A stretch of 64,000 nucleotides of DNA from Verrucomicrobiales bacterium. GTDB lineage: Bacteria > Verrucomicrobiota > Verrucomicrobiia > Verrucomicrobiales > DEV007. Made by a program: the position numbers and the translations under genes. Location of the stretch: assembly GCA_048267005.1 (NCBI GenBank), contig JBLWYI010000013.1:118455-182454 (forward strand), read 5' to 3'. Positions 225 through 47,428 of the stretch are shown one piece after another. The notes beneath the pieces are model-generated. The model was not told the origin of the DNA. It searched no databases and saw nothing but the letters and a program-made list of their open reading frames with translations. Numbering within the stretch: position 1 is the stretch's first letter; the number at the start of each line of letters is the position of its first letter.

Positions 225-2132
225 ATGTCATTCTTCAATCTGCTTAGTGTCGACAACTTTCGTCCAGCTCGCGATATAGCACCAAAGCAGATTAGCGATG
301 AAGTGCTTGCGACTGTGCGAGAGCTTCATGAGGCGGAACAGATGGAACCCTGGATTCAGGCTATCTTGTTCGATACGAATAATACTCCCCATGGACCGTC
401 TGAGATCGTCGATATCCTGACCCATAAAGTATCTGTGCGCGAACAAGTGGGAATTGCAGCGTTTATTTTAAAGGGCCGTTCGTTTCGGACTGTGCGCCCC
501 TCTCACGTTGGCCACCAGATATTTAGGCTTGAGCGAATTCGAGACCTTCGGTTTGCCTTTTTTGTAGCATCAGGGAATATCCTTGATGAAGTGAAAGAGC
601 AGTTTATTTCAACTGCGCAGAAGTTAGCTGCCGATTACTGCATCATTGATTGTTTCGATCTTGCCAGGTTATTTGTCGCCTTTGGTTATTTATGTCCACG
701 CGACGGCGAAATAATCCGAGGGGGGCAATGTTCATGCGGATATACTCCGGCGAATCGAACGTCTAACATCCTTCAACAGGCAGCGTTGTCTGAATTACAG
801 TGCAGCCACGACCTGGATGAATCGGCAGGCGCCGTCATCCTTCCTACAGCGGCAGGGAAGACGCGGGTAGCAGTATTAGACATTGAGCGATTCGATCCAG
901 GAATGGCTGTGTATGTAGCGCACTCTCATGAAATCCTCGAATCCGCAGAAGCAGAGTTTCTTACAGAATTTTCTCAGTCTGAGGTGATCCGATTTGATTG
1001 TAAGCCGACGTCGACTGCACTTCGTAGAATTAATCTTATCACCATTCAGTCACTGTCACGAAATTTAGATGTGTTTGATGGGTTGTCGGTGGATTATATC
1101 GTCGTCGATGAATTTCATCATGCTGCCGCTCTTAGTTACCGGCGGATGATCAACGCGCTGAGTCCGTCTTTCTTGCTAGGGCTAACCGCAACGCCGTTTC
1201 GAGGTGACCAGCAAGACGTTCTTGAACTGTGCAATGGAAACGTAGTCGTCAACTACGAACTCCGGCAGGGAATCGAGTTCGGTGTACTCTGTCCATACCA
1301 CTATTTTGGATGTTTCGATGACGTCGATTACTCCGACGTTAAGTATAACGGGTCTCGGTACGATGTAGCAGATCTGGAACGCGCTTTGATCATCCCTGAA
1401 CGTGATGCGGCGATTATCAGCAAGTGGAGAGAGAAGGCGGATGGAAAGCCTACCCTGGCATTCTGTGTGTCCCACGCGCATGCGGAGCGAGTGAAGCAAA
1501 GTTTTCGTGATCAGGGTGTTGTGTCCGAGGTCTATCTCGCTACGACGCCGCAAGAAGTGAGATCAGAGCTACGTTCCCAAATGCGCGCGGGTGAGTTAAA
1601 GGTGTTGTGCGTTGTTGACGTTCTCAATGAAGGTGCTGACATGCCTTTCATCGAATGCCTTTTGTTCCTTCGTCCAACCGAATCAAAGCGGGTCTTTTTC
1701 CAGCAATTGGGTCGAGGACTTAGACGATTCTTCGGGAAGGGGCATTGTACGGTCATCGATTTTATCGGCAATTTTAAGAATGCCTATCGAATAGCCGAGG
1801 ATTTAGGTCTTGAACCCTATGACCAAATTGACCCTTCGGCCGAGAATTCCAGAGGACGAACGGGCAAGGAAATTTTGAATCTGCCTACAGGTTGCATTGT
1901 CGAATTCGACGAGCGCGTCATCGACATATTTGGTACGCAGACAATGAATCCTCGTTTTGCTACACGTCAAAACATCGCGCGTATTCTAATATACCAGTAC
2001 AAGCGTATCGAACGGCGTTTGGGACGCCGTCCTACTAAGCGTGATCTTGACCGAAATACTGTCATTGGCAGCCGGTTCTACAAATTGGTATTTGGAAGTT
2101 GGCAAGAGTTTGAACGGCGGATGGAAAAATGA
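225..2132 (+). CDS. Superfamily-2 helicase (type III restriction Res-subunit-like, DExH) with a ~190-aa N-terminal non-helicase domain, possibly a PD-(D/E)xK-like nuclease
   Basis: ATG at 225; 635-aa ORF; Walker A 'PTAAGKT', motif II 'DEFHH', motif III 'TATP', motif VI 'QQLGRGLR'; N-terminal 'ILFDTNN..EIVDILTHK' block resembles a nuclease core (inference); local GC visibly lower than downstream genes. Confidence 0.8.
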   Translation: MSFFNLLSVDNFRPARDIAPKQISDEVLATVRELHEAEQMEPWIQAILFDTNNTPHGPSEIVDILTHKVSVREQVGIAAFILKGRSFRTVRPSHVGHQIFRLERIRDLRFAFFVASGNILDEVKEQFISTAQKLAADYCIIDCFDLARLFVAFGYLCPRDGEIIRGGQCSCGYTPANRTSNILQQAALSELQCSHDLDESAGAVILPTAAGKTRVAVLDIERFDPGMAVYVAHSHEILESAEAEFLTEFSQSEVIRFDCKPTSTALRRINLITIQSLSRNLDVFDGLSVDYIVVDEFHHAAALSYRRMINALSPSFLLGLTATPFRGDQQDVLELCNGNVVVNYELRQGIEFGVLCPYHYFGCFDDVDYSDVKYNGSRYDVADLERALIIPERDAAIISKWREKADGKPTLAFCVSHAHAERVKQSFRDQGVVSEVYLATTPQEVRSELRSQMRAGELKVLCVVDVLNEGADMPFIECLLFLRPTESKRVFFQQLGRGLRRFFGKGHCTVIDFIGNFKNAYRIAEDLGLEPYDQIDPSAENSRGRTGKEILNLPTGCIVEFDERVIDIFGTQTMNPRFATRQNIARILIYQYKRIERRLGRRPTKRDLDRNTVIGSRFYKLVFGSWQEFERRMEK

Positions 2133-2218
2133 GTTGAATTAGGAAGTAGGTTTGAAAGATGGTGAAGTTTCGAGATCAACTGCCGATCTGATAAGGAACC
2201 TAAGAGTTTTATCCATGA

Positions 2219-2262
2219 AAGACCACGTTGGCATCGTCGTTAACCGATGTTCCTAACGTGGT
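2219..2262 (+). terminator. Putative rho-independent terminator (compound hairpin 'gaccacgtt...aacgtggtt' followed by TTTT)
   Basis: 8-bp outer stem with an inner 5-bp stem (catcg/cgatg), then T-run, ~85 bp after the helicase stop. Confidence 0.35.
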
Positions 2263-2313
2263 TTTAAAAAAAAGCTGGACTGAAATAGATGGGATCTTTA
2301 GCATTGCCGGACT

Positions 2314-3018
2314 ATGCCGAGAAACAAAGTAGCTGAAATCTTCACATCTTTTCTCGATGCACCATGGGTCGCTCCTTGCGAGCGCCATGTGCGTGCACTT
2401 GAAGAGGATTGTGCCCATTGCTCATGTCTCCATGCTGGTGAGCAGGATTCAAACATGAGACAATTCATTGAAAAGTTCGTCTCTGAAGTCTCATCGAAAT
2501 ATCGATTGAAGCCTAATTCACTGATTGCCTATGCAATGGGACCAGTGCGAAACGGATCGGGCCCGACTAATCCTCACTTTGAATTTTACGCCTACAGAGG
2601 AGCGTCTTCCTACCCTCGTCCTGTGCCTCACAAATTGCTGAAATCTGATGGAGCATTTAGAAACATGCTGGGACGAGACGATGAGAGAGTCGTCGAAAGT
2701 AAATTGGAAGCAGCGGGCAATCCAGAATTTCCTTTTGTGCTTTCAAAGCTGGATCATGCCATCGGAGGGGATGGCTCAGCGTTTATGTTTTCTCGGGATT
2801 ATAGAGTGTCTCCTCGTCCTCTTGTTTCTCCAGCGTTCTATATTGGTGGTTTTGAAACAATTGGGCATGTATTTGGCGATCGTGGTAAAATACCACTGGC
2901 AGATGTCGTTCATCTCAAAGAGCTCTTCACTGCAAAATTATCCATAATGATGTTTCGGCATTCGACCTGCTGCAACCAGTTTGAGTATGTTGATGAGGAC
3001 CCGCTCACTATCGACTAA
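2314..3018 (+). CDS. Hypothetical protein (234 aa), no recognisable motifs; encoded immediately downstream of the helicase in the low-GC edge segment
   Basis: ATG-initiated 705-nt ORF co-directional with the helicase; low GC. Confidence 0.5.
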   Translation: MPRNKVAEIFTSFLDAPWVAPCERHVRALEEDCAHCSCLHAGEQDSNMRQFIEKFVSEVSSKYRLKPNSLIAYAMGPVRNGSGPTNPHFEFYAYRGASSYPRPVPHKLLKSDGAFRNMLGRDDERVVESKLEAAGNPEFPFVLSKLDHAIGGDGSAFMFSRDYRVSPRPLVSPAFYIGGFETIGHVFGDRGKIPLADVVHLKELFTAKLSIMMFRHSTCCNQFEYVDEDPLTID

Positions 3019-3116: not shown

Positions 3117-4955
3117 TCACTCACCACCCGTCTTCCGCTCCACATAAACATAATACGCGCCGAGCAATGACTGCCGTTCTGCGTCATCGAACCAGGTGTG
3201 GAGACGGGTGCGGCCGGGTTGCAGGGTGGCGGTGAAGGTGACGGATTGGTCCTTTGGCTTCACGGGCCGGCGCATCATGGGGCCGGTGCCGATCTTCATT
3301 CGGGCGGTGGCGATGGGGAGGGCGACGCCGACGGGGAGCTCGCCGTCGGTGACTTTGGTGTCGGGGTAACCGGCGTTGAGGGGGAGTGCGGTCTCGCGGG
3401 GCCAGCGGCGCAGCTCGAAGGTGTACTCGCCGGCCTCGGCGACTTCGATTTCCCACCAACTGTTCTTGAGGTCGCCACGCCGGGTCTGCTGCTGCTGATC
3501 AATAAAGACGTCGAGCCATTCGCAGGCGGTGAGCATCATGGGGTTCTCGGATTCGTGACCGATGATGGTGGGCTGGGGTTCGTTGGCTGTGTCTTTGACT
3601 GCGTCCCACCAGGTGTCGAGATGCTTGTTGAGCTTTGCGGCGATCATAGCGTGAGCTGCGATGACGTTTTTCTGCTGCATGGGATCGGCCTCGAGATTGT
3701 AGAGGGTGTTGCCTTCGAGAAGTCGCCAGTGTTTCCAGAGGACGGCAGCGCCTTCGCGTCTCATGATGGACGGGCTGTCGGGGGAGGGGTAATCCATCCC
3801 GAAGGGCATGCGGCTGTAGTTGATGACGAGTTTGCGGTCGGGATCGATTTCGGTTTTGCCCTGGAGGACGGAGGCGAGGCTTTCGCCGTCGAATGTGGGT
3901 GGGGTGGCCGGCTTGATACCGGTGAGATCGAGCAGGGTGGGGAGGAGATCCTGGACCTGGCTCAAACCGGCGATGTCTTTCCCGCCGTGGAGTTTTCCCT
4001 CCGGCCAGCGGATGAAGCAGGGGACGCGGTGGCCGCCTTCCCAGAGTTGGGTTTTCTTGCCGCGCATCCCGGCGTCGAAATAGATCTCGCCCATGGTGCT
4101 GCCGTTGTCGGTGAGGAAGACAAGGATGGTGTTGTCGGCGATGCCGGATTCGGTGAGGAAGGTTTCGAGTCGGCCGAAGTTGTCGTCGATGTTTTTGCTC
4201 ATCGCGAGGAAGCGAATGAGGTTCTCCCGTTTGGCGGGCGGGAGTTTGGGGATTTTCCCGGCTTTCTCGGCGGCGATGTAATCTTTCTCCTGGGCGAGGC
4301 GGTCGGCTTCGGGAACCCACCAGGGGGAGTGCGGGGCGTTGGTGGGCAGGTAGGTGAAGAAGGGCTGTTTCTCTGCGGCGCGGGATTTCATCCAGGTGAT
4401 GGCTTCGGAAAAGAAGACGTCGGTGCAGTATCCTTTGTAGGGTTTCAACTCGCCATTGTGGCGGTAGGTGTCGTCGAAGTAGTCGTTGTTCCACACATCG
4501 GGGGTGGAGTTGATGTGGGAGGAGGGGAACCACAGCGTCTCATCGAACCCGCGGTCCTGCGGGCGGTAGGGGTAGTTGTCGCCGAGGTGCCATTTGCCGA
4601 AGATACCGGTGTGGTAACCGGCTTCTTTGAATAAGTCCGCGATGGTCGGCAGCCCGGCGCGGAGCATGGTGCGGCCGGAGCTGACGTTGATAGCGCCGTT
4701 CTTAGCCGGGTCGAGCCCGGTCATGAGCTGGCCGCGGGTCGGCGTGCACATGGGGGAGACGTGGAAATCAGTGAGGCGGATGCTGTCGGCGTGAAGGCGG
4801 TCGAGGTGGGGAGTCTTGAGGACGGGATTGCCGTGAGCGGACAGCTCGGGGTAGCCCTGATCATCGGTGATGAGGACGATGACATTCGGCTGGTCGGCTG
4901 CTTGTACTGAATGAGCCAGCATGAGGATGCCGGCGATGAGGGTGATGAATTTCAT
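3117..4955 (-). CDS. Sulfatase (arylsulfatase family), secreted
   Basis: Signal peptide 'MKFITLIAGILMLAHSVQA'; sulfatase signature 'CTPTRGQLMTG' (C-x-P-x-R). Confidence 0.9.
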   Translation of the reverse strand: MKFITLIAGILMLAHSVQAADQPNVIVLITDDQGYPELSAHGNPVLKTPHLDRLHADSIRLTDFHVSPMCTPTRGQLMTGLDPAKNGAINVSSGRTMLRAGLPTIADLFKEAGYHTGIFGKWHLGDNYPYRPQDRGFDETLWFPSSHINSTPDVWNNDYFDDTYRHNGELKPYKGYCTDVFFSEAITWMKSRAAEKQPFFTYLPTNAPHSPWWVPEADRLAQEKDYIAAEKAGKIPKLPPAKRENLIRFLAMSKNIDDNFGRLETFLTESGIADNTILVFLTDNGSTMGEIYFDAGMRGKKTQLWEGGHRVPCFIRWPEGKLHGGKDIAGLSQVQDLLPTLLDLTGIKPATPPTFDGESLASVLQGKTEIDPDRKLVINYSRMPFGMDYPSPDSPSIMRREGAAVLWKHWRLLEGNTLYNLEADPMQQKNVIAAHAMIAAKLNKHLDTWWDAVKDTANEPQPTIIGHESENPMMLTACEWLDVFIDQQQQTRRGDLKNSWWEIEVAEAGEYTFELRRWPRETALPLNAGYPDTKVTDGELPVGVALPIATARMKIGTGPMMRRPVKPKDQSVTFTATLQPGRTRLHTWFDDAERQSLLGAYYVYVERKTGGE

Positions 4956-4970
4956 GGGACGCTTGTGTCT

Positions 4971-5951
4971 TTATTCTTTGGGAGGGGCGGTCAGCAGGGA
5001 TCCCAGCAACGATTCCAGCCCGGCGGGGGATCCTTTGATGCGAACGTAGGTGTGGGCTTTGGCCCTGTCGGTATTCCAGTAGGTGTGCCCGTCTGAATCA
5101 ACGACGACGCGGCCTTTGGTCACGGAAGACCAGTATTTGTCCTCGATCCCGCGAACGGCGAGGAGGACGGTGGCGAGGTCGTGGTTGGGCTTGCCGAACT
5201 CGAGCGAGTTGGTGCCACGGAAAGGCCGCAGTTCGTAGGCCCGGCGCACGGGGTTCTCTTTGGGGGAATCATTCAGCTCGATGCCGTTGACCATGGCCGC
5301 GCCGACTTCGTAGCCCTGCCAGATGATGGGGGTGGGCCACCCGTTGGTCACGGTGACGGCGGCTGCGGGATCAAGCATGATGTTGGTTTCGGGACGGGCG
5401 GTGCGGGGGAATCCGCCGCCCATGACGAGCAGGGATTTCACCTTGGCTTTCACCAGCTCCGGCTCGGCCTGGAGGAGGTCTTCGAGATTGCTGAGGGCGC
5501 CGACGCTGCAGATCACGACGGAGCCATCGGGCTGGGCGGTGAGGGTTTTCCGATAAACTTCCAGCGCGTCGGGCATTTGATCGTCCGGCTTGCTGTCGTG
5601 CGGGAATTCAGCACTGAGGGCTGCGGTGAAGCTGCTCAATCCTTTCCAGCGGGAGGTCGGTTTGGCGCCGTCTTTGTCGGTGCCGATCAGGATGTCGGGG
5701 CGGTGATACCAGGTATTGATGGCATCGACCGCGGCGGCGGAGGCATTGCTCGGGCATTTGCGATTGGTGACGACGGCGAGGATTTCGGCCTCGCCTTTGT
5801 CAGCCAGAGCATGCAGGACGGCGAGGGCACCGACGTCATCGCAGTCGTTGGCCATGTCGGTATCGAAGATGATTTTTACCGGGTCAGCGGCCATGGCTGA
5901 GAGCCCTATCGAAAGCGCCGCGGCGGTGATGGCTCTATGGAAGATCATCAT
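4971..5951 (-). CDS. Inosine-uridine-preferring nucleoside hydrolase (IUNH)-fold protein with N-terminal signal peptide
   Basis: 'IIFDTDMANDCDDVGALAVLHA' aspartate-cluster motif of the IUNH family; hydrophobic N-terminus 'AALSIGLSAMAADP'. Confidence 0.85.
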   Translation of the reverse strand: MMIFHRAITAAALSIGLSAMAADPVKIIFDTDMANDCDDVGALAVLHALADKGEAEILAVVTNRKCPSNASAAAVDAINTWYHRPDILIGTDKDGAKPTSRWKGLSSFTAALSAEFPHDSKPDDQMPDALEVYRKTLTAQPDGSVVICSVGALSNLEDLLQAEPELVKAKVKSLLVMGGGFPRTARPETNIMLDPAAAVTVTNGWPTPIIWQGYEVGAAMVNGIELNDSPKENPVRRAYELRPFRGTNSLEFGKPNHDLATVLLAVRGIEDKYWSSVTKGRVVVDSDGHTYWNTDRAKAHTYVRIKGSPAGLESLLGSLLTAPPKE

Positions 5952-5965
5952 ACTAAGGAGAGGGG

Positions 5966-7969
5966 TTATTTTGTCTCCACAGGAGGCTCGCTTACGAGTT
6001 GAACAAACGCTTCGATGGTTCGTTCAGCCTGGGTGCCGTTGAAGACCAGGTAGCGGTCTTTGCCGTTCTCTTTGCCTTTGCGATTGGGGCGGAACAGGGT
6101 TGCGCCGTCGTCTTCCACAGTCACTAAACCCGGGGGCGACAAATCGAAATATCCCCGGTCCGGATAAACGGCGTGCAGCACTGCCGTGAGATCCCAGGTG
6201 GGGCGGTCATGCGGTTTGGTGGGGACGTAGGCGAGGTAGCCTTCCCGGATGATGTGTTTGGGATCGTATTGGTAGTCCTGTTGAATGCTTCCCCAGGGAT
6301 AGGCTGCGGCGATTCCGATCTCGTAGCCGCTCCAGATAATGGGAGTGGGCCAGGTCTTTGCGAACGACTGCGCTGACGGGACATCGAGGCGGACGTTGTA
6401 TTCCAGATGACGGGTGTCGAAGCGCACGGTCTGGAAAGCGCCGGCCATGATGATGAGTTCTTTCACCTTGGCTTTGGCAAGAGCCACGCCATCGAGGTCG
6501 GAGTGTTCGTCTGGCTCTGATTCAAGGAGCTGGGCGAGGTTGGTGAAGAATCCGACCTGCGCGATTTTAACCGACTGATCGGGCTGTGCCGCGAGGGTTT
6601 TGCGAAGCAGAGCCACGGCATCTGGGGCATCCTTGCCGCTCTTCAAATCGTGATCATAATTATCGGCAAGTCCGTTGTAGCGTCCGGGCTCGGGAGTGAC
6701 ACCGTTGCGAACGGCACCCACGGGGATGTCGGGCCGACCGTAATAGGTGTTCAGGGCATCGATGAAGGGGGCTGATTTCTCATGATCCTTGGTCGAGGTG
6801 ACTGCCAGTAGCTCGACCGCACCGCGGCGCTCGAGCTGGTGAATCAATGCCAGAGCCATGGCATCATCGATGTCATTCCCCATGTCGGTGTCGAAGATCA
6901 GTTTCACTGGTTTCTCCAGTTTCGGGGCTGCGGCGATGTGGGCTGGGGGCTGAGCCACGAGATGGACGAGGGCTTCCTGGACCCGTGCGGTTTGTCCCGG
7001 GGTCATGGTCAGGAAGCGGTCCCGTTTCTGTGCGGGCTCTTTGCCTCCCGGGCTGAATCGGGTAAAGCCATCGTCTTCTACGGTGACACGCCCCGTCTTG
7101 GAGAAACCGAAGTAGCCCCGCTGCGGGAATACAGCGTAAAGCACGCTGGTTAAGTCCCACGTCGGTCGGTCATGCTCGGGGCCGCTGTGGAGGAGGTAAG
7201 CTTCTTTAACGGGATGCTTTTCCACATAGTTGAAATCGTTCCTGATGCTGGCGCGCGGGTAGGGCGCAGCGATCCCGATCTCGAATCCGCTCCAGACGAC
7301 GGGAATCTCGTTCGGCCATTCCGCTGCGAGGATCTGCATCGACTGGACGTGATTGCGAACATTGGCTTCGAGGTAGCGGTTGTTGTCGTTGATGGTTTCA
7401 AGCGAACCGGCCATCACTGAAAGCTCTTTCACCTTTTGGCGAATGAGTGCAGGGCCGCCTTCTTCCTTGAGAAGGTCAGCGAGGTTGGTGGCCAGTCCGA
7501 CCTGGACGATGGTGACGGATCGATCTTCTGCGGCGGTCAGGGTTTTCTTCAACAGAGAGACGGCATCTTCCGCGTCTTCGTCTTTGAGGTCGTGCGGGAA
7601 TGAATCAGCCAGCTTCAGGTATTTAGAATCACGGTCAGGAGCATTGGGATTGGTCCCGACCGGGATATCGGGGCGTCCGTAAAAAGTGTTCACTGCATCC
7701 ACAAAGGGAGCAGCCTGCGGGTGCTTCTTGGAGACTGTGACGGCGAGCAGCTCGCACTTCCCCCGGTCGGCCAGAGTGTGCAGCATGGCCAGAGCGAGGA
7801 CGTCATCAACATCACCGGTGATATCGGTGTCGAAGATAATGGGGACGGGCTTTTCCTCCGCGTAGGCAGCGATACCGAGGAGACAGGAGAGAGACAGGGC
7901 GACCAAACGAACCAACAGGGTTGGTTTGGTGATCGAACAGGGTTGGTTCGTAAGGAGAGGGGGAGTCAT
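5966..7969 (-). CDS. Tandem-duplicated IUNH-fold protein (two nucleoside-hydrolase-like domains)
   Basis: Two DTD motifs ('IIFDTDITGDVDDVLALAMLH' and 'LIFDTDMGNDIDDAMALALIH'). ATG at 7969 overlaps the permease stop (tcat, ATGA coupling). An alternative TTG start near 7915 would give a clean signal peptide 'MVRLVALSLSCLLGIAAYA' and place the REP-like element outside the CDS. Confidence 0.85.
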   Translation of the reverse strand: MTPPLLTNQPCSITKPTLLVRLVALSLSCLLGIAAYAEEKPVPIIFDTDITGDVDDVLALAMLHTLADRGKCELLAVTVSKKHPQAAPFVDAVNTFYGRPDIPVGTNPNAPDRDSKYLKLADSFPHDLKDEDAEDAVSLLKKTLTAAEDRSVTIVQVGLATNLADLLKEEGGPALIRQKVKELSVMAGSLETINDNNRYLEANVRNHVQSMQILAAEWPNEIPVVWSGFEIGIAAPYPRASIRNDFNYVEKHPVKEAYLLHSGPEHDRPTWDLTSVLYAVFPQRGYFGFSKTGRVTVEDDGFTRFSPGGKEPAQKRDRFLTMTPGQTARVQEALVHLVAQPPAHIAAAPKLEKPVKLIFDTDMGNDIDDAMALALIHQLERRGAVELLAVTSTKDHEKSAPFIDALNTYYGRPDIPVGAVRNGVTPEPGRYNGLADNYDHDLKSGKDAPDAVALLRKTLAAQPDQSVKIAQVGFFTNLAQLLESEPDEHSDLDGVALAKAKVKELIIMAGAFQTVRFDTRHLEYNVRLDVPSAQSFAKTWPTPIIWSGYEIGIAAAYPWGSIQQDYQYDPKHIIREGYLAYVPTKPHDRPTWDLTAVLHAVYPDRGYFDLSPPGLVTVEDDGATLFRPNRKGKENGKDRYLVFNGTQAERTIEAFVQLVSEPPVETK
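7901..7955. repeat. REP-like short repeat, two direct copies of the 'AACAGGGTTGG' core
   Basis: 'cgaaccaacagggttggtttgg' and 'gatcgaacagggttggttcg'; same core recurs at 7 or more other loci in the window. Confidence 0.6.
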
Positions 7970-8928
7970 GATTTTTTCTGTTTCATCCGGCGGATTCGCC
8001 AAGCATCAAAGATTACAGCGATGATGATGACCAGACCGGTCACGAGGAGTTTGGTTGAGTTTTCTGCACCGATGTGGCCAAGGCCCGCTGCGAGTGTGGC
8101 CATGATGAGAACACCGAGGAAACTACCGATGACGGAGCCCCGCCCACCCATGAGACTTGTGCCACCGATGACAACGGCAGCGATGGCGTCGAGCTCCAGC
8201 ATGTTTCCAGCGCCGGGATTTGCCGAGGCGAACCGGCTGGCTTCGAATGACGCTCCCAGGCCAGCCAGGGCTCCGGCGATGATGAATACGACGATCTTGA
8301 TCGGTTGCGTGCTGATCCCGGAAAAGATGGCCGCTTCTTCATTGGCTCCGACGACTTTGGTGTAGCGACCGAAAACGGTTTTCGAAAGTAAGACCTGCCC
8401 CAACGCCACGATCAATACCGCGAAGAGGAATGCCGGGGAGATTCCAAGGTTCGTGATGGGAGCCGAGAGCCATTCAATTTCAGCTCCGATGTATTTGGTC
8501 TGGGAATCGGTGGTGCGTTGCGCCAGGCCGCGGGCGATTTGCATCATGCCAAGGGTGACGATGAAACTCGGGACCCCGAATTTAACAGAGACGAATCCGT
8601 TTCCCGCACCGCAAAGTGCGCCGGTGGCTACGGCGAGGAGAATGGCGGGGATAAACGGCCAGCTCCAGTCGACCATGGCAATCCCGAGGATGGATCCGCT
8701 GAATGCGAGGACTGAACCAACGGACAGATCGATTCCACCAGTCATGATGACCAGTGTCATCCCGACAGCAACCACCGCGAGGGCCGGGACGGAATTGGCG
8801 ACGGAGTTGAATGTCCCGGTTGAGATAAAAGAGCGGTCGACGAATCCAAAGACTGCCACGACAGCGATCAGCACGCCGAGAAGGCCGAGCGACTCACCAA
8901 ACCTCTGGAGCGTGGGGCTTTTGATCAT
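7966..8928 (-). CDS. ABC transporter permease (ribose/CUT2-type, RbsC-like)
   Basis: 320-aa polytopic membrane protein with a typical RbsC-family Gly/Ala-rich TM pattern; directly follows the substrate-binding protein gene. Confidence 0.85.
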   Translation of the reverse strand: MIKSPTLQRFGESLGLLGVLIAVVAVFGFVDRSFISTGTFNSVANSVPALAVVAVGMTLVIMTGGIDLSVGSVLAFSGSILGIAMVDWSWPFIPAILLAVATGALCGAGNGFVSVKFGVPSFIVTLGMMQIARGLAQRTTDSQTKYIGAEIEWLSAPITNLGISPAFLFAVLIVALGQVLLSKTVFGRYTKVVGANEEAAIFSGISTQPIKIVVFIIAGALAGLGASFEASRFASANPGAGNMLELDAIAAVVIGGTSLMGGRGSVIGSFLGVLIMATLAAGLGHIGAENSTKLLVTGLVIIIAVIFDAWRIRRMKQKKS

Positions 8929-8957
8929 CGGGGATTGTTTCGCCGGCTCGTGTTGTC

Positions 8958-9914
8958 TTAAAGGCTGTCTTTGGTGATGAGATCAACAGGAGTTTTCTGA
9001 TCAGCAGGGGTGTTTCCTTTGAGGATTTCCAATGCGGCTTCGATCCCGAACACTGCGAGGTCACCACCGTGTTGGTCAGCCGTTGCAAAGATGCGGCCCT
9101 CTTTGATGAGAGCTTGAACTGCGGAAATATTATCGAACCCGACGACCTTGACCTGATCTGATTTGCCAGCGGCTTTGATTGCTGACACTGCGCCAAGGGC
9201 CATGGAATCATTGCTGGCAAGGATGGCGGCGAGATCGGAGTGTTTCTGCAAGATCGCACTGGTGATCTGGTTGGCTTTATCCATTTCCCATTGCGCGCTC
9301 TGGGTCGATACGATTTCTGCTCCGGCGGCTTTCATGGCGTCTTCGAATCCAGCGCGTCGTTGCTGAGCATTGAACGCGGTGGGGACGCCCTCAAGGATGG
9401 CGACTTTTGCCCCGGCGGGGAGTTCTTTCGCGAGAGCTTCACCGACGATCCTGGCGCCTTCCCGGTTATCCGGACCGACGAAAGGGATCGTGGTCTCCGC
9501 TTGAGCCAGCACTTCCGCGTCGAGTTTGTTGTCGATGTTAATGACGGTGATTCCGGCTGCCCGGGCCCGCTTTAAAACGGTGATGAGAGCTTTGGAATCG
9601 GCTGGTGCGATGACGATGGCGTCGACTTTCTTTGCGATCATCTGCTCAACGAGAGCGACTTGCTGAGAGATGTCGGTCTCGTTCTTAATACCGTTTACGA
9701 TCAGTTTGTATTGTCCGGGGTGTGCTTTGGCGTGGGACTCTGCCCCGTCAGACATGGTTTTGAAGAACTCATTGGCGAGAGATTTCATGATCAGAGCGAC
9801 CTGAGGCGTCTCGTCTGCAGGTGCTGTCGCCGATTCATTGCCAGACCCGCAGGAAACGAGCGTAAGGGCGACAGCAGCGGCGGTCAGCTGTTGGAAAAGG
9901 CGTAAATAATTCAT
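8958..9914 (-). CDS. ABC transporter periplasmic sugar-binding lipoprotein (RbsB / PBP type I family)
   Basis: Lipobox 'LTLVSCGS'; periplasmic-binding-protein fold motifs ('KVDAIVIAP', 'GITVINID'). Confidence 0.85.
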   Translation of the reverse strand: MNYLRLFQQLTAAAVALTLVSCGSGNESATAPADETPQVALIMKSLANEFFKTMSDGAESHAKAHPGQYKLIVNGIKNETDISQQVALVEQMIAKKVDAIVIAPADSKALITVLKRARAAGITVINIDNKLDAEVLAQAETTIPFVGPDNREGARIVGEALAKELPAGAKVAILEGVPTAFNAQQRRAGFEDAMKAAGAEIVSTQSAQWEMDKANQITSAILQKHSDLAAILASNDSMALGAVSAIKAAGKSDQVKVVGFDNISAVQALIKEGRIFATADQHGGDLAVFGIEAALEILKGNTPADQKTPVDLITKDSL

Positions 9915-9930
9915 AGGTTACGTATTTGAA

Positions 9931-9958
9931 CAAACGATTGCGCAATATTGCGGTTTGG
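9931..9958. promoter_or_regulatory. Candidate LacI-family operator: palindrome 'caaac gattg CGCAATATTGCG gtttg'
   Basis: Perfect 12-bp palindrome 9941-9952 with inverted flanks, in the 45-bp gap between the lacI-family gene stop and the SBP gene start. Confidence 0.35.
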
Positions 9959-9959
9959 A

Positions 9960-10994
9960 TCAAGTTTTTTTGTTACGGGGTTGTGTCAGGACTGACCCAC
10001 GGTCGAGAAACTCGGTGGTGACTTCCACGATGAGTCCTTTGTTTTTACCCGGATCAGAAATTTCCTCAAAGGCGATGCGGAGGGCTTCGGTCGCCATTTT
10101 CCCGGTGTCTTGAACGACTGCACTGAGCGGGGTGGCGAGGACGGTGGCGTAGGGCTGGTCATCGAATGACACCAGCGAGATATCTTCGGGAATGCGAACA
10201 CCAGCCTGACCCAGAGCCTGAAGTGCGCCGAGGGCATTCACGTTTCCATAGGAGAAAATCGCGGTCGGGCGAGGGGATTGTTCGAGCAACTGCCGGGTCG
10301 AGTGGTAGCCGTCGGCGACTGAGAACTCGCTCCCTATTGACGTGCACTTCATGTTTCCGATACCGGCCTTGACCCCCCGGGTTCGTTCGAGGCTGGTCGA
10401 GGTACGCGGGTCGCCATGGAGGCACGCGATGTGGGAGTGGCCTTTGCTTTTGAGAACCGCTGCGACGTTTTTTGCCGCTTCAAAGTCAGTCGAAACCACG
10501 GATGGAGCTGAGAGATCAGGGAAATACCGGTCCACAAAGACCAATGGCAGAGCGCTTTTCACCAGATCCGCATAGACCGCGGAGTCATCGCTGACGGGGC
10601 AGGCGATGATGGCATCGACGCGGCGTTCCCGCATAACGTCTAAGGCACGTCTTTCCATTCCGGAGTTATCGCAATCGCAGAGGATCGTGACGTAACCTTT
10701 CTCCTGTGCGGCCCGTTCAACGGATCGGGCGATGGTGGCGAAGAAAGGGTTGGTAATATCGGGGAGCAACAGACCCAGGGTGAGGGTGCGCTTCATGCGC
10801 AAACTCCGGCCGGCAGGGTCGGGACGAACCCCGAACCGGGCCGCGGCATTGGTGATCTTTTCCTGAGTTGCCTTGCCAATTCGGTATTGATTTCCCTGAC
10901 CGCTGAGGGTTCGGGAGACGGTGGAGACAGAAGTGCCCAGATATGTGGCGAGTTCCTGAAGGTTGGATGGATTTGATGAACCTGAGTTCGCCAT
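9960..10994 (-). CDS. LacI family transcriptional regulator
   Basis: N-terminal HTH 'LATYLGTSVSTVSRTLSG' followed by a periplasmic-binding-protein-like effector domain. Confidence 0.9.
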   Translation of the reverse strand: MANSGSSNPSNLQELATYLGTSVSTVSRTLSGQGNQYRIGKATQEKITNAAARFGVRPDPAGRSLRMKRTLTLGLLLPDITNPFFATIARSVERAAQEKGYVTILCDCDNSGMERRALDVMRERRVDAIIACPVSDDSAVYADLVKSALPLVFVDRYFPDLSAPSVVSTDFEAAKNVAAVLKSKGHSHIACLHGDPRTSTSLERTRGVKAGIGNMKCTSIGSEFSVADGYHSTRQLLEQSPRPTAIFSYGNVNALGALQALGQAGVRIPEDISLVSFDDQPYATVLATPLSAVVQDTGKMATEALRIAFEEISDPGKNKGLIVEVTTEFLDRGSVLTQPRNKKT

Positions 10995-11003: not shown

Positions 11004-12206
11004 TTACGGGTTCAAGAATAAGACTGATGAAGCGGTGTAACCATGAACGAAATTCTGCCCGGCCACCGGACCGATCTCTCCATTGCAGAAAAAGCCACCC
11101 ATGGGGACCTTTCCGAAAACTTCTTCGAAGATCGTGGCGTCATGGTTGGGTTCTTCAAACAGCCGAACACCTCTCCCGGCACAGGTAAACATCAGTGAGC
11201 CAAACGGTTCACCCCAGGATTTCTGTGCTTCCCGGCAGGCGATGCGCAGATCCTCGTCCGCAGTGTCTTTGTCTCGCATTTGGAACTGAACGGTTTGTCC
11301 AACTCTGGGAAGTGCCCCGAGCGCCAGCACACCGGCCTCGGGATCGCCTCCTATGATGTTTCGGACCAGAAAATCTCCACGCTTGAAGTCGTCGACGTAT
11401 TCAGAAATCGCCAGCCCGGCGAAGATATTCCCGCGTGCTTCAGATTGCTCTTCAGCATCGAGTTCCTCGAAGGTTTCCTCCAGAATCTGGTAAGCCTTTT
11501 TGCCTCCGATTTGGAGGATCACGTTTTCGTCGACGCCGGTGATTGTGTAGGGCTCGCCGATAGGACGGCAACCCTGGCTGACGACGCCACCGAATTTGAC
11601 GCCATTTTTGAAATTCACTGCAAGCAATGAGGCATCAGACACCCCTTTCTCAGTGAAGAGAAAAATCTCTTCCGGATTAGGCCCGCCGCTGGCAAGCCCA
11701 CCAAAGCAGGGGACATCGGGATAAGCTGTATTCCAACCGCGCAGCCAGGTGTCTGTGCTCATACGGGTAGGGTTCCCCAAGGTGATCCACCCACCGTTGT
11801 CATCCCCGTTCATTTGTAGACCTGTGATCGCCTGCCAGGGAGTGCCGGATTCGGCGTCATTGAGGTCGGATTCATCAAGGGGGACACAGGTAATGTCCGT
11901 ATTGGGAAGGCGCATAAACACCAGCGACATTCCGCTGACGTTTTCATCTTCCTGCCCAACTCCCACGAGTCCATATCCTGAACAGCCTACGATCAGGGGG
12001 GCGTGACCGTAGATCTGGACGATTTCTGTAAAGTCTTTGAGGTGTTGTTCCCAATCGGAGCTGACGAACGCAAATACGATATCGGGTGCTCCGCCCAGGC
12101 GACTCCGCGCGGCAACCACGGCTTGAGTTACCACTGCCTCATCAAAAGTGGTCCGAATCAGGCAGGAGGTTGCCTGATTCGATTTCAATTCTGTATCCTG
12201 TAGCAT
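11004..12206 (-). CDS. FIST domain sensory protein (FIST-N + FIST-C)
   Basis: Domain-level resemblance to FIST proteins (C-terminal 'GFFCNGEIGP' block). The ORF-track start at 12224 is a TTG; the first ATG is at 12206. Confidence 0.75.
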   Translation of the reverse strand: MLQDTELKSNQATSCLIRTTFDEAVVTQAVVAARSRLGGAPDIVFAFVSSDWEQHLKDFTEIVQIYGHAPLIVGCSGYGLVGVGQEDENVSGMSLVFMRLPNTDITCVPLDESDLNDAESGTPWQAITGLQMNGDDNGGWITLGNPTRMSTDTWLRGWNTAYPDVPCFGGLASGGPNPEEIFLFTEKGVSDASLLAVNFKNGVKFGGVVSQGCRPIGEPYTITGVDENVILQIGGKKAYQILEETFEELDAEEQSEARGNIFAGLAISEYVDDFKRGDFLVRNIIGGDPEAGVLALGALPRVGQTVQFQMRDKDTADEDLRIACREAQKSWGEPFGSLMFTCAGRGVRLFEEPNHDATIFEEVFGKVPMGGFFCNGEIGPVAGQNFVHGYTASSVLFLNP

Positions 12207-12260
12207 TGCTCCTACCGTACCCAAAAACTGCAGGAGCGGGAACTAAAAATGAGGGGAGGA

Positions 12261-13799
12261 TCAATGCAGAAAGTGACGATGACCGGTGAAGACCATTGCA
12301 GCATCGTGTTCGTTCGCGGCTTTAATCACCTCTTCGTCTCGAATTGATCCGCCTGGCTGAATGGCAGCCGTTGCTCCAGCTTCGATTGCGGAGACCAATC
12401 CGTCAGCAAATGGGAACAGCGCATCGCTGGAAACGACGCTGCCTTTGAGGCTCAACCCGGCTTGCTCTGCTTTCCAGACAGCGAGGCGGCATGAATCTAC
12501 CCGGGCCATTTGTCCTGCTCCGATACCGAGGGTGCGATCGGTTCCCGAAAAGACAATCGCGTTGGATTTAACATGTTTTACGACCCGCCAGCCAAAGCGC
12601 ATAGCTTCCATTTCATCCGCTGTCGGAGGGCGTTCCGTAACAACCCGCTTCTCAATGTTGTCGAGTCCGAGTGCTGTTTTGTCGTGATCCATCACCAGCA
12701 AACCACCCGGAGCGGACGCAATAATCGGATCGTCCAGCGTTTCGCGAAACGCTTCGTTCATCTGAATCAACCGCAGATTTTTCTTCTTCTGCAGAAGTGC
12801 TCTGGCATCGGCATCAAAATCAGGTGCAATGATCACATCGGTGAAGATTCCCGAAATCACCCGGGCGAGGCCGACATCGAGCGAGCGGTTGCAGACAATA
12901 ACTCCTCCGAACGGAGCTTGTTTGTCAGTTTCAAAAGCTTTGTCCCATGCCCCGCGAAGGCTGTCGTCATCAACTCCGACGCCACAGGGATTGGTGTGTT
13001 TAAGAATTGCGACAGCCGGACGGCGAAATTCCAGAATCAACTCAGCAGCTCCACCAATGTCGATCACGTTGGTGTAGCTGAGACCTTTGCCCTGGAGTTG
13101 CTTAAAATAGTCACCAAAATTTCCGTAGAGCGAAGCTGCCTGATGGGGGTTTTCCCCATATCGAAGCTCCTGAGAAAGTGGCAGGCACACTGAATAGCTC
13201 GCTTCTGTTTCCTGTTCCTCGTTCAGATAAGTGGAAATGGCGCGGTCGTATTCCGAGGTGCGTTGGAACACCTTGATGGCAAGGCGCTCTCTTGTTTTGA
13301 GCGTTGTATCTCCATCGTGATCGTCCATTTCTGTGATGACCGATTCATAATCGGCGTGATCACAAACCACAGTTACGGCGCTGTGGTTTTTTGCGGCTGA
13401 TCGAAGCATTGAAGGGCCTCCGATATCGATTTTCTCGATTGCTTCTTCCCGTGTGACACCTTCCTGAGCCACCGTCTCCTCAAACGGATACAAGTTTACG
13501 ACGACCAAATCGATCGGGAGAATGTCATTGTCTTCCGCCTGCTGGACGTGTTCCTCGACATCGCGACGGTGGAGGAGTCCTCCGTGAATCTTAGGGTGCA
13601 GTGTCTTTACCCTCCCTTCGAACAGTTCAGGAAATCCTGTGAAGTCTGATACTTCAATGACGGGGATGTCCATATCGGCAATGAACTTTGCAGTTCCTCC
13701 GGTTGATAGAATTTCGACTCCGTGCTTGTAGAGACCTTTGGCGAGAGCCTCGAGGCCGGATTTGTCGGAAACGGAAATAAGGGCGCGTGAAATGCTCAT
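12261..13799 (-). CDS. purH: Bifunctional AICAR transformylase / IMP cyclohydrolase
   Basis: 'MSISRALISVSDKSGLEALAKGLYKHGVEILSTGGTAKF' canonical PurH N-terminus. The ATG at 13799 was chosen; the ORF-track 48-codon upstream extension was rejected. Confidence 0.95.
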   Translation of the reverse strand: MSISRALISVSDKSGLEALAKGLYKHGVEILSTGGTAKFIADMDIPVIEVSDFTGFPELFEGRVKTLHPKIHGGLLHRRDVEEHVQQAEDNDILPIDLVVVNLYPFEETVAQEGVTREEAIEKIDIGGPSMLRSAAKNHSAVTVVCDHADYESVITEMDDHDGDTTLKTRERLAIKVFQRTSEYDRAISTYLNEEQETEASYSVCLPLSQELRYGENPHQAASLYGNFGDYFKQLQGKGLSYTNVIDIGGAAELILEFRRPAVAILKHTNPCGVGVDDDSLRGAWDKAFETDKQAPFGGVIVCNRSLDVGLARVISGIFTDVIIAPDFDADARALLQKKKNLRLIQMNEAFRETLDDPIIASAPGGLLVMDHDKTALGLDNIEKRVVTERPPTADEMEAMRFGWRVVKHVKSNAIVFSGTDRTLGIGAGQMARVDSCRLAVWKAEQAGLSLKGSVVSSDALFPFADGLVSAIEAGATAAIQPGGSIRDEEVIKAANEHDAAMVFTGHRHFLH

Positions 13800-14012
13800 T
13801 ATACTAAGATCCTGCCTAGCAGGTTCGTTCAGACTTAAACTGAGGCCGGATTGAAGCAAGGCAAAGTTTCCTGAAACAGATTCCTTAAAAAAATAACGCG
13901 AAATCGCCTGATATCCTCCTTTGAACCAGTAAAAACACCGCAATAATTTTAAAAAATTATTGCAAATTAGTTAATAGATCCTAAAATTCCTACAAGTTTA
14001 ATAAAACTGGCT

Positions 14013-20100: not shown

Positions 20101-20258
20101 ATGCGAAACTCCGACTTCTGGTTCTTGGCATCCGGTCCGTGGCACTTGAAGCACTTGTCCGAAATGATGGGGCGCACATCCCGATTGAAATCGATCTTCT
20201 TCTCTGCTGCAAAGCCGGGCAGAGTAAAGATGAGGAGGCATAGGAAAACTCGGATCAT
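17196..20258 (-). CDS. Planctomycete PSD1-type protein (PSCyt1 cytochrome-like + DUF1549 + LamG-like insert + DUF1553)
   Basis: Signal peptide; 'CFKCHGPD' heme-like motif; 'CTRCHDHKYDP' DUF1549 signature; 1020 aa. Confidence 0.9.
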   Translation of the reverse strand: MIRVFLCLLIFTLPGFAAEKKIDFNRDVRPIISDKCFKCHGPDAKNQKSEFRIDTFDHATEDLDGVKGIVPGDLKESEVHWRIRSDDPDEMMPTPKSKMKLTDEEKDIIDQWILQGGKFAKHWSLNPLPEKVEVPETGNKNWGRNEIDAFILEKITEHKLEPSPETTKEKWIRRVTFDLTGLPPTLAEVDAFLDDSSTAAYEKVVDRLLNTDAYAERMTSEWLDVARYSDTYGFQVDRNREVWPWRDWVIGAFRKNLGYDEFMTHQVAGDLLPNATRDQILATTFNRLHGQKVEGGSVPEEFRIEYIADRVHTFGTAFLGLTMECTRCHDHKYDPLTQHDYYSLSAFFSNIDEAGLYSFFTSSVPTPTLELPTEAQEKALAEAEKAIDELAGEKPEMAGKFEPAPVDIPKAGQIVHLDFEALEKNKFANRADEKSPASTNANNKVVPGKVGNAVKLTGDDAINLPKGVGNFTRDQPFSYALWIQTPDVKERGVIVRRSKAWTDAASRGYELILLEGKLSAALVHFEPGNSIRVQMKEALPVGEWQHVMVNYDGSSRAAGLKLFLNGKPADTEIVRDKLTREIVGGGDDFVGLGQRMRDNGFKNGLVDEFYVFDRQLSEREVEKLANPDKEVKSDLEHHYLTDNEKVAKWLDQLKAAREKRSAVQKGIKEIMVMQDKPGPAEAYILDRGSYEARAEKVTPDIPAVLPALPDRKDADRLDLARWLTDPNHPLTARVAVNRYWQMMFGRGLVSTSEDFGSQGKPPSHPELLDWLSRDFVAGGWDLHQLLKKMALSATYRQVSDVTSDLRERDPENIYLARSPSGKIAAEMIRDNALAVSGLLSAKVGGASVNPYDLAVSFKPIKPSSGESLYRRSVYTFWKQTAASPVMMTLDASKREVCRVKREETASPLQSLVLMNGPQFVEAARVTAQKLIAKHGDDEQAILHDAFRLFTSRMPDAEESKILKALLDEQLAEFQAAPEKAAELFKIGEKKVEVVDDPARLAAVNVLVSTLMNFDESITKR

Positions 20259-20374
20259 TGAGGTCAGTATATGCCGGATTCCCCCATAATATTACTGCCT
20301 TAAACAGGTGAGATGAAAGAATCGCGGAAGGCCAAAAGACAATCCCGCCCTTTTCATTTACCCGATCTTCAGGA

Positions 20375-21871: not shown

Positions 21872-21989
21872 GAAACCAAAACAGAGAACCAAAGTAGAGC
21901 GGGGGCATCCTCCGCTCCGCAGTTTGCGCATCTTGTATTCGAAGGCACCTCGCCGGACCGCGAGTTGCCCACTCGCGTCAATGCCAAAA

Positions 21990-22032
21990 CGATCAGACCC
22001 TGTTCGTTCATCGGTCAGACCCTGTTGGATCG
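21990..22032. repeat. REP-like repeat, two copies in reverse orientation ('cagaccctgttcg', 'cagaccctgttggatcg')
   Basis: Lies between convergent sulfatase and DUF1501 genes. Confidence 0.6.
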
Positions 22033-22043
22033 TAAAGCCTCGA

Positions 22044-33167: not shown

Positions 33168-33192
33168 CTGAAAACCGGAACCCTAAGAAACT

Positions 33193-47421: not shown

Positions 47422-47428
47422 TCCAGCA

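Follow-up and report, generated by a model that had tools for sequence, protein, structure and literature searches.

A putative ribose-scavenging operon of Verrucomicrobia and Planctomycetes with predicted exported nucleoside-hydrolase-fold enzymes, a sulfatase and, in some lineages, an importer without its own ATPase

Results

The LacI-headed gene cluster

We analysed a stretch of 64,000 nucleotides from a Verrucomicrobiales bacterium (assembly GCA_048267005.1, contig JBLWYI010000013.1, positions 118,455 to 182,454), here called the window, and in particular a cluster of six genes headed by a regulator of the LacI/GalR family. Together with a candidate operator these genes make up seven minus-strand elements that fill positions 3117-10994 (Table 1). 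A preliminary description of the same DNA had listed the six genes in the order from LacI to the sulfatase, and both the coordinates and the Pfam matches agree with it. Read from lacI to the sulfatase gene, the intergenic gaps are 45, 29, -4, 14 and 15 nt, and the stop codon of the permease gene and the start codon of the tandem nucleoside-hydrolase-fold (IUNH) gene overlap in an ATGA that is seen in the sequence, thus confirming the small gaps and the coupling reported there. The start of the tandem gene was taken as the ATG at 7969 in place of the TTG 8002 of the list of open reading frames (ORFs). Every domain passed its curated Pfam cut-off except the helix-turn-helix domain of LacI (PF00356), which was marginally below it (26.0 vs 27 bits). 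The short or overlapping gaps and the conserved operator described below suggest that the genes from the regulator to the sulfatase form one regulated unit.

Table 1 Features of the cluster and of the two genes upstream of it
Feature	Position	Strand	Pfam match or remark
Sulfatase, S1 formylglycine-type, predicted exported, 612 aa	3117-4955	minus	PF00884, PF16347
IUNH-C, single-domain IUNH-fold protein, predicted exported, 326 aa	4971-5951	minus	PF01156
Tandem IUNH protein, A-B domains, predicted exported, 667 aa	5966-7969	minus	PF01156 twice
A-type domain of tandem IUNH protein	~6935-7861	minus	
B-type domain of tandem IUNH protein	~5969-6934	minus	
RbsC-like permease, 320 aa	7966-8928	minus	PF02653
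Lipoprotein sugar-binding protein, CUT2 ribose-type, 318 aa	8958-9914	minus	PF13407
Candidate LacI operator, TTGCGCAATCGTTTGTTCAA	9926-9945		20-bp imperfect palindrome centred on CG
LacI/GalR-family repressor, 344 aa	9960-10994	minus	PF00356, PF13377, PF00532
FIST (FIST-N/FIST-C sensor)	11004-12224	minus	9 nt upstream of cluster
purH	12261-13943	minus	36 nt upstream of FIST

Related operons in the PVC superphylum

The cluster was compared with about 170 related loci; below, L numbers denote loci and P numbers proteins of this set. When species-representative genomes were scanned with the tandem protein, more than 445 loci were returned, the best match being 65% identical. Most of them belong to Verrucomicrobiota and Planctomycetota and some to Hydrogenedentota, Acidobacteriota and others, and the closest relatives of the operon proteins are encoded in Verrucomicrobiales metagenome-assembled genomes (MAGs). 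Of the 80 loci examined, 31 have the IUNH gene or genes next to those for a binding protein and a permease of the same subfamily. The planctomycete layout, represented by L026, runs LacI, IUNH-B, binding protein, ATPase, permease, IUNH-A, IUNH-C and sulfatase; the sulfatase is missing from this arrangement in L020, and the C-type gene in L032, L044 and L057. Cultured carriers of the operon include Kolteria novifilia Pan216 (L032) and Planctomycetales bacterium 10988 (L020). Most complete is L168, which encodes LacI, an IUNH protein, a ribokinase, the binding protein, the ATPase, the permease and a sulfatase fused to IUNH-C, and its kinase scored 333.5 bits against the ribokinase equivalog TIGR02152 (cut-off 299.65). 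No genes of carbohydrate-active enzymes (CAZymes) recurred in the related operons. The neighbouring DUF1501, PSCyt/PSD, SDR and DUF1559-like genes were rejected as parts of the system, as they belong to families found genome-wide in the Planctomycetes-Verrucomicrobia-Chlamydiae (PVC) superphylum. In the literature we found nothing on a nucleoside hydrolase together with a sulfatase in Verrucomicrobia or Planctomycetes. On the strength of this gene-order comparison, the cluster is a conserved PVC-superphylum operon that is widespread in Verrucomicrobia and Planctomycetes.

The regulator matched PF13377 with 94.6 bits and PF00532 with 85.7 bits, and its best NCBIfam models were of the RbsR, FruR, UriR and CytR types, all below their equivalog cut-offs. 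Genes for LacI-type regulators also flank the orthologous operons L004, L005, L007, L020, L026, L044, L057 and L168. A custom scan for 20-mers centred on CG located the candidate operator TTGCGCAATCGTTTGTTCAA 12-31 nt upstream of the binding-protein ATG. Near-identical boxes precede the binding-protein gene in L004 (TTGCACAAACGATTGTGCAA), L005, L007, L011, L021, L082 and L084, so the box is conserved despite saturated synonymous divergence, and it is also present in relatives without an adjacent lacI. It is the sole site in the window; it matches both strands because it is palindromic. The box resembles LacI-family operators of the PurR/RbsR type. Scans for consensus promoters and terminators did not rise above chance level, and an inverted-repeat search of the intergenic regions found nothing.

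Three groups of nucleoside-hydrolase-fold domains

IUNH-C matched PF01156 with 77.2 bits and the tandem protein with 127.8 bits over two stretches (cut-off 34.2). Structure modelling and fold comparison covered the tandem protein. Its AlphaFold2 model had a pLDDT of 90.8 and a pTM of 0.90, and its top Foldseek matches in the PDB were all nucleoside hydrolases, with TM-scores of 0.68-0.79 (on the target) at about 19% identity; in sequence, the family is remote from every solved nucleoside hydrolase (phmmer E ~1e-6). The domains were aligned with HMMER to two reference structures, Crithidia IU-NH (1MAS) and L. reuteri RihC (8QND). It was found that A, B and C all have the equivalents of Asp8, Asp10, Asp14, Asp15, Glu166, Asn168 and Asp242, and that these positions are invariant across 27 orthologs. 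In nucleoside hydrolases, they include the catalytic base, the Ca2+ ligands and the ribose-binding Glu and Asn.

The domains fall into three types. Type A, the first half of the tandem protein, has the motif DTD-I-[TSA]-G-D and a Trp-Asp pair; type B, the second half, has DTD-[MIL]-G-N-D and also a Trp-Asp pair; type C, the single protein, has DTDMAND (DTDMANDCDD in the window) and a His-Asp pair (NHD). They represent three orthologous groups, each 55-76% identical between Verrucomicrobiota and Planctomycetota. L008, L010, L027 and the planctomycetes encode the A and B domains separately; in the window, L001, L003-L005 and L007 they are fused, and L033 contains a C-B fusion. Orthologs of IUNH-C with 56-76% identity were found in L004, L008, L011, L020, L026, L027, L033, L082 and L084. 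With IUNH-C as the query, the number of representative clusters retrieved was 540 at E<=1e-30 and 2356 at E<=1e-10; among the 147 best representatives that were new in this search, 60 exceed 450 aa in length.

Larger proteins of this family carry further domains. Fusion partners of C-type IUNH domains are BNR_2 sialidase-like propellers, in either order, ConA-like (Laminin_G_3) domains and Ig domains (P0362, P0368, P0363, P0369); in L086 an IUNH domain is fused to an ADP-ribosylglycohydrolase inside a transporter operon, and precomputed annotations add fusions to amidohydrolase and DUF1080 domains. A malectin/Ig-domain protein, P0380, matched the IUNH-C query, and PF01156 was not detected in it at E<=1e-5. 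Architectures with BNR, ConA-like, Ig and malectin domains are typical of secreted glycan-active enzymes, and the fusions suggest that this IUNH family acts on extracellular glycoside-like compounds and not in cytoplasmic salvage.

Predicted export of the hydrolases and the sulfatase

When the N-termini were inspected, the sulfatase, IUNH-C and the tandem protein all showed positive charge at the start, then a hydrophobic core and, just before the first strand of the domain, an AxA-type site. The sulfatase begins with MKFITLIAGILMLAHSVQA, and cleavage would fall between AHSVQA and AD; IUNH-C begins with MMIFHRAITAAALSIGLSAMA, with the site between LSAMA and AD; in the tandem protein the segment KPTLLVRLVALSLSCLLGIAAYA leads to a site between GIAAYA and EE. 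In cytoplasmic nucleoside hydrolases, the domain begins at residues 3-9. The AlphaFold2 model of the tandem protein contains an isolated low-confidence helix at residues 18-34, and its domain starts at residue 42. In 108 of 114 homologs of the tandem protein, the N-terminus is extended by 20 aa or more and includes a 10-residue window of strong hydrophobicity. The IUNH genes also stand in an extracytoplasmic context, sharing the operon with genes for a predicted exported sulfatase and a lipoprotein binding protein. It had been noted beforehand that enzymes of this family are normally cytoplasmic, while those of the cluster have signal-peptide-like N-termini; the second half of this statement is borne out by the inspected N-termini and by the homologs, but the location is not without precedent, since a periplasmic member, RusNH, has been described in Bacteroides.

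The sulfatase and its coupling to the IUNH genes

The sulfatase matched PF00884 with 185.3 bits and PF16347 with 36.1 bits, and its translation contains the formylglycine motif C70-T-P-T-R74. Its nearest solved relatives are carbohydrate sulfatases, namely 7STT (E=1.6e-43) and the S1_19 carrageenan sulfatases, with E values of 1e-37 to 1e-43 overall. The C-terminal ~158 aa (residues 455-612, window positions 3120-3593) gave no Pfam or PDB sequence match, permissive thresholds included, and are conserved in all orthologs including P0367. Over about 600 aa, C-terminal domain included, the orthologs are 56-70% identical, and they are 611-612 aa long where gene calls exist.

The ortholog directly follows the IUNH genes in 12 loci (L001, L004, L005, L007, L010, L011, L026, L032, L044, L057, L082 and L084) and lies about 1.2 kb downstream of them in L027; these 13 loci span Verrucomicrobiota and Planctomycetota. 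In P0367 (918 aa) the sulfatase ortholog (54% identity over 604 aa) is fused in frame to a C-type IUNH domain (53%) that follows it, and in P0080 a different S1 sulfatase (31% identity) is fused to an A-type-like IUNH domain. In 15 of 80 loci an IUNH gene has a sulfatase gene on its strand no more than 300 nt away, against a background of one sulfatase per 31 kb in these sulfatase-rich genomes. The window itself encodes two further S1 sulfatases, at 20375-21871 and 40712-42388, in line with a sulfatase-rich genome. The fusions argue that the sulfatase and the IUNH hydrolase share one substrate. Many operons do without the sulfatase, and we therefore regard it as an accessory to a core of regulator, importer and IUNH proteins.

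These data have to be weighed against plain nucleoside scavenging, in which the exported hydrolases would split ordinary nucleosides, derived from RNA and DNA in the environment, into base and ribose, and the sulfatase would either act on an unrelated substrate or, as a promiscuous member of the alkaline-phosphatase superfamily, serve as a phosphoesterase and make nucleosides from nucleotides. The family annotation and the fold are those of nucleoside hydrolases, IUNH-C retains the His-Asp pair that activates the leaving group in IU-type enzymes, and the links to a ribokinase and a ribose-type transporter are compatible with such a role, as are the weak match of the sulfatase to the NCBIfam model of the PehA phosphoric/sulfuric ester hydrolase (72 bits) and its absence from many operons. 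However, the sulfatase is far nearer to carbohydrate sulfatases (E ~1e-43) than to the phosphonate monoester hydrolase type, A and B have Trp in place of the His, and three cross-phylum paralog groups with fusions to lectin-like, malectin and BNR domains exceed what simple scavenging needs. In addition, the closest analogue that has been studied, RusNH, has only weak activity on nucleosides. On balance, we consider this explanation rather unlikely.

The binding protein and the nature of the imported sugar

The binding protein matched PF13407 with 210.7 bits and the permease PF02653 with 149.6 bits; the best NCBIfam models of the transporter parts were of the RbsB/AlsB and RbsC/GguB types, all under their equivalog cut-offs. 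By inspection, the binding protein has a lipobox, LVSC followed by G. A strict lipobox pattern was present in 79 of 120 close verrucomicrobial homologs (P0122-P0240), and in the eight inspected sequences that did not match it there is also a Cys right after the hydrophobic stretch; the N-terminal region of 4YLE, by comparison, contains no lipobox-type Cys. 4YLE_A from Burkholderia is the best solved relative of the binding protein (E=6e-99, 63% identical), and it belongs to an operon that encodes a binding protein, an ATPase, a permease, LacI and a ribokinase (355.1 bits against TIGR02152). A literature search for 4YLE and Bmul_1631 found nothing relevant.

We compared the binding protein with the ribose contacts of E. 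coli RbsB. N13, F15, F16, D89, R141, N190, D215 and Q235 are kept, F164 is replaced by W and R90 by N; overall, 9 of the 10 contacts were counted as kept. Because ribokinases are encoded in L168 and in the 4YLE operon and the RbsB contacts are largely kept, the imported product is most probably D-ribose.

Alternatively, the IUNH-fold proteins could be new glycosidases acting on a non-ribose furanoside or another cis-diol sugar of sulfated algal or host glycans, with that sugar being imported. Such a role would go well with the occurrence of ConA-like, malectin and BNR sialidase-like domains and of sulfatases as fusion partners, with the richness of the host genomes in sulfatases and with the binding protein itself, which scored higher with allose-binding 5DTE (173 bits) than with E. 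coli RbsB (124 bits) and has lost R90; the ligand of its relative 4YLE is not known to have been identified. It is difficult to reconcile with the equivalog-level ribokinase in L168 and in the Burkholderia 4YLE operon, with the retention of all nucleoside-hydrolase ligands of the ribose 2',3'-diol and Ca2+, and with the lack of CAZyme genes recurring in the operons. We regard it as quite unlikely and prefer ribose as the imported sugar.

Loss of the dedicated ATPase

The preliminary description had stated that no ATP-binding cassette (ABC) ATPase is encoded in the cluster or anywhere in the window. This holds: no window ORF contained a Walker A motif together with an LSGGQ-type signature, tblastn of the window with the cognate ATPase of a related locus gave a best E of 1.7, and Pfam scans of the other large ORFs showed no ABC ATPase. 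Importers of the carbohydrate uptake transporter family 2 (CUT2), unlike those of CUT1, are reported to keep a dedicated ATPase (PMC8579813), as had also been pointed out for CUT2. In related operons a tandem ATPase of about 500 aa with two nucleotide-binding domains (NBDs) is encoded between the binding-protein and permease genes; it was found in 23 genome loci, L086, L168, Burkholderia and at least 14 metagenome loci, and altogether at least about 40 related operons have it. ATPase-less loci are the window, L008, L011, L014, L018, L021, L023, L053, L075, L082/L083, L084 and L093. In these, the binding-protein gene adjoins the permease gene, and no CUT2 ATPase was found within up to 10 kb, contig permitting. 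When metagenomes were scanned with the permease, most of the matches listed were generic CUT2 systems, and L093 was the only new ATPase-less locus among them.

Neighbour-joining trees of the binding protein and the permease placed the window with L011, L021 and L008 in one clade, joined by L014 in the permease tree only, and L018, L023, L053 and L075 among ATPase-containing relatives; this placement indicates at least two ATPase losses. Judging from the distribution among relatives, the ancestral operon had a dedicated ATPase and the ATPase-less state of the window is derived. The orphan transporter described earlier is thus real at this locus and unusual for CUT2, but it is a derived variant of a system that in about 40 relatives has its ATPase.

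The permease has kept 73 of the 88 columns (83%) that are at least 90% conserved in ATPase-linked relatives, and its ratio of nonsynonymous to synonymous divergence (dN/dS) against ATPase-less relatives is 0.14-0.22. In the ATPase-less clade both the binding-protein and the permease genes are intact, with dN/dS values of 0.05-0.22 at a dS of about 0.9 or more. By this measure the transporter genes are under purifying selection. The departures of the permease from the conserved columns concentrate in its EAA-type cytoplasmic loop (VVGANEEAAIFSGI, residues 193-206), which reads G-A-N...A-I. In the ATPase-linked members the loop has the form G-T/S-N-x-x-A-x-R/K-[LMI]-x-G in 39 of 39 cases, and the Burkholderia permease has the same; the ATPase-less members have G-[AGC]-N in 11 of 11, and the Arg is lost in 10 of 11 (Fisher p ~1e-9 to 3e-11, uncorrected for phylogeny). 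EAA loops dock the ATPase in other ABC importers, and by analogy the EAA-type loop would do so in CUT2 as well. Other CUT2 subfamilies with adjacent ATPases have non-Arg residues (L, I, E, Y, A) at this position, and the loss of the Arg as proof of ATPase independence was rejected on this ground. In L008 (9046-10016) the permease match is split over two overlapping ORFs and part of it reads X; masking or poor quality of the MAG sequence may account for this, or else the gene may be decaying.

It could be argued that the transporter half is a decaying remnant left after the loss of the ATPase and that the enzymes alone matter. The 64-kb window contains no ATPase, the docking loop has lost conserved residues and the permease frame of L008 is interrupted, possibly for reasons of sequence quality, but intact frames under the selection described above are present in at least 11 ATPase-less loci. 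Most of the conserved permease columns are kept, the operator before the binding-protein gene is conserved and the permease is translationally coupled to the IUNH gene, which makes decay hardly credible.

Could the binding protein and the permease then act without any ABC ATPase, as a binding-protein-dependent secondary carrier or a sensor? The recurrent loss, the change of the loop in both ATPase-less clades (Thr to Ala, Gly or Cys in all 11 members and loss of the Arg in 10 of them) and the lack of an ATPase within 10 kb in the ATPase-less loci would fit such a function. On the other hand, the rest of the permease is conserved, and since other CUT2 permeases with adjacent ATPases tolerate a non-Arg residue, we read the loop change as a fit to a different ATPase and not as a sign of ATP-independent transport. 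To our knowledge, no CUT2 permease works without an ATPase, and we consider this explanation very unlikely. The purifying selection together with the changed docking loop suggests instead that an ATPase encoded elsewhere in the genome drives the permease.

Surroundings of the operon in the window

The genes for a FIST sensor and purH lie upstream on the same strand, as had been noted, but neither recurs in any related locus, and they were rejected as operon members. For this reason their adjacency is probably coincidental; read-through into lacI is possible, and no terminator-like site was detected on that strand.

At the left end, the operon adjoins a pair of genes at 225-3018 with a low GC content at third codon positions (GC3; 0.48 and 0.40). 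One encodes a 635-aa ResIII/Helicase_C protein with a C-terminal HNH-associated repeat that matched the PADLOC models of Type IV methyl-directed restriction (E=3.6e-54); the 234-aa protein encoded after it had no family match. The pair is probably a small acquired defence island. A second block, at 31656-40661, encodes a phage CII-like regulator (229 aa), a 1731-aa DUF3686/DUF7902/AAA protein ('ATPase involved in DNA repair') and two proteins, of 248 and 696 aa, for which no family match was obtained. None of these proteins matched PADLOC, and the block could be an uncharacterised defence or mobile module. At 60856-62562 there is a membrane acyltransferase (Acyl_transf_3) of unusual architecture, with ankyrin repeats (residues ~154-256) inserted in the acyltransferase domain, which matched in two stretches. 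Gene pairs of PVC families, PSCyt/PSD1 with DUF1501 and DUF1552 with PSD2-5, are found at 17196-25648 and 40712-47520.

Discussion

Our results are best explained by a LacI-repressed operon that scavenges ribose outside the cytoplasm, a reading to which we assign a probability of roughly 60%. A ribose-containing compound, at least some forms of which bear a sulfate ester, would enter the periplasm, where the Sec-exported formylglycine sulfatase would take off the sulfate. Three exported Ca2+-dependent ribosyl-hydrolase domains, A and B fused and C alone, would then cut one or more ribofuranosyl bonds and release D-ribose, to be caught by the membrane-anchored RbsB-like binding protein and passed to the RbsC-like permease. 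With the dedicated tandem-NBD ATPase of the ancestral system lost from the operon, an ATPase from elsewhere in the genome would have to power the permease, and the docking loop would have diverged to match it. A ribokinase encoded elsewhere would phosphorylate the ribose. LacI would sit on the palindrome before the binding-protein gene until ribose or a related effector frees it. That a ribosylated or sulfated substrate is processed in the periplasm before uptake had already been proposed in the preliminary description, and the L168 ribokinase, the RbsB contacts and the P0367 fusion speak in its favour.

Several observations weigh against this interpretation. The A, B and C domains are putative Ca2+-dependent ribosyl hydrolases by their fold, their residues and the ADP-ribosylglycohydrolase fusion of L086, but all three have the fingerprint DxDxxxDxDD, with two extra residues, as do 154 of 154 instances among the homologs examined (the canonical DxDxxxDD was found in 0 of 154), and in IUNH-C the equivalent of Asn160 of IU-NH is unaligned. 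The predicted export and cleavage of the IUNH proteins and the sulfatase are read from their N-termini by inspection. With Asn at the position of RbsB R90, the ligand of the binding protein could be a ribose analogue. The sulfatase is absent from many related operons (e.g. L008, L013, L020, L021), so the removal of sulfate cannot be essential to the core function, and we know of no naturally abundant sulfated riboside. No ribokinase, no sulfatase-maturing enzyme of the formylglycine-generating (FGE) or anSME type and no ATPase was found among the window ORFs scanned; L082 has an FGE gene some 3 kb upstream of its operon. Finally, the GC3 climbs along the operon from 0.61 in the binding-protein gene through 0.67 in the permease and 0.68 in the A-B gene to 0.78 in the IUNH-C gene and 0.81 in the sulfatase gene. 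The last two values are far higher than those of the remaining cluster genes and exceed those of all genes outside the cluster (0.40-0.70). These two genes may have been acquired later from a higher-GC donor, in which case the operon may be a recent mosaic.

A bolder version of the scavenging model is possible, although we put it forward tentatively and with more doubt than conviction. Domains A, B and C and the dedicated 612-aa sulfatase would constitute a new periplasmic pathway for sulfated ribofuranosides (for example 5-O-sulfated ribosides, as an undescribed environmental nutrient) that is widespread in Planctomycetota and Verrucomicrobiota, and the CUT2 importer of one verrucomicrobial lineage would have switched to a shared or foreign ATPase, the first such case in CUT2.

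Sulfated organic matter of the sea and of soils has Planctomycetes and Verrucomicrobia among its major degraders, and most of the many sulfatases of these bacteria have no known substrate. Here gene order in two phyla and an in-frame fusion tie one sulfatase ortholog to a predicted secreted branch of nucleoside hydrolases and to genes for the uptake and phosphorylation of ribose. The operon may thus provide a handle on a ribose-containing, probably sulfated nutrient and also on the substrates of the Bacteroides ribose utilisation system (Rus). Its ATPase-less variant would be a natural experiment on a CUT2 permease changing its ATPase partner, visible in the docking loop.

Comparison with known systems

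The sulfatase resembles the S1 carbohydrate sulfatases, such as the GalNAc-6-sulfatase 7STT and the S1_19 enzymes, in its PF00884 domain, its CxPxR motif and, as predicted here, its signal peptide. It differs from them in an identity of about 30% at best, in the extra conserved 158-aa C-terminal domain and in being tied to nucleoside-hydrolase-fold enzymes and not to glycoside hydrolases. With Crithidia IU-NH (1MAS) and E. coli RihA, RihB and RihC, the IUNH proteins share the fold (TM ~0.7-0.79) and the residues Asp8/10/14/15, Glu166, Asn168 and Asp242, to which IUNH-C adds His241. Unlike the canonical cytoplasmic enzymes, to which they are about 19% identical, they have the DxDxxxDxDD motif, are predicted to be exported, have Trp for the catalytic His in A and B, and occur as tandem fusions and in fusions to sulfatase, lectin-like, BNR and ADP-ribosylglycohydrolase domains.

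In the uptake of sugars, shared 'multitask' ATPases are known: MsmK, MsiK and MsmX energise CUT1 importers in trans (PMC8579813, PMC4519317). As in those systems, the operon of the window contains genes for a binding protein and a permease without an ATPase gene; those importers, however, belong to CUT1, while here the importer is of the CUT2 type, its ATPase was apparently lost secondarily and the docking loop has changed. With the rbs operon of E. coli (rbsDACBKR) and the Burkholderia 4YLE operon it shares RbsB-type, RbsC-type and LacI components and a palindromic operator resembling GCAAACGTTTGC, and related versions also contain a ribokinase. It differs from rbs in that the window has no RbsA ATPase, RbsK or RbsD, that the operon includes genes for predicted exported hydrolases and a sulfatase, that the binding protein is a predicted lipoprotein and that R90 of RbsB is replaced by Asn.

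The closest known system is Rus of B. thetaiotaomicron, which together with diversified rus-like loci of Bacteroidetes was described by Glowacki et al. (bioRxiv 10.1101/574913). According to these authors, RusNH is a periplasmic nucleoside hydrolase with weak nucleosidase activity and an extra Asn and Asp in its N-terminal Asp motif, the accessory enzymes of rus loci vary and include aryl sulfatases, formylglycine-generating enzyme and ADP-ribosylglycohydrolases, and the natural substrates of Rus were not established. The motifs DTDMGNDIDD and DTDMANDCDD of the operon agree with RusNH as it is described in words, the comparison being one with that description only. Both systems contain a regulator (LacI in some rus loci), a nucleoside-hydrolase-family enzyme that is periplasmic or predicted to be so and a sugar importer, and ribokinases are encoded in Rus and in the related operon L168. 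On the other hand, Rus has a SusC/SusD outer-membrane pair and a non-ABC permease, whereas the PVC operon uses a CUT2 ABC importer, and no SusC/SusD-like pair was found in the window or in the related loci examined. The window, unlike Rus and L168, has no ribokinase gene, and the PVC operon is further set apart by its three nucleoside-hydrolase paralog groups, the A-B fusion and one specific sulfatase ortholog. By analogy, the PVC operon would work like Rus without being a member of it.

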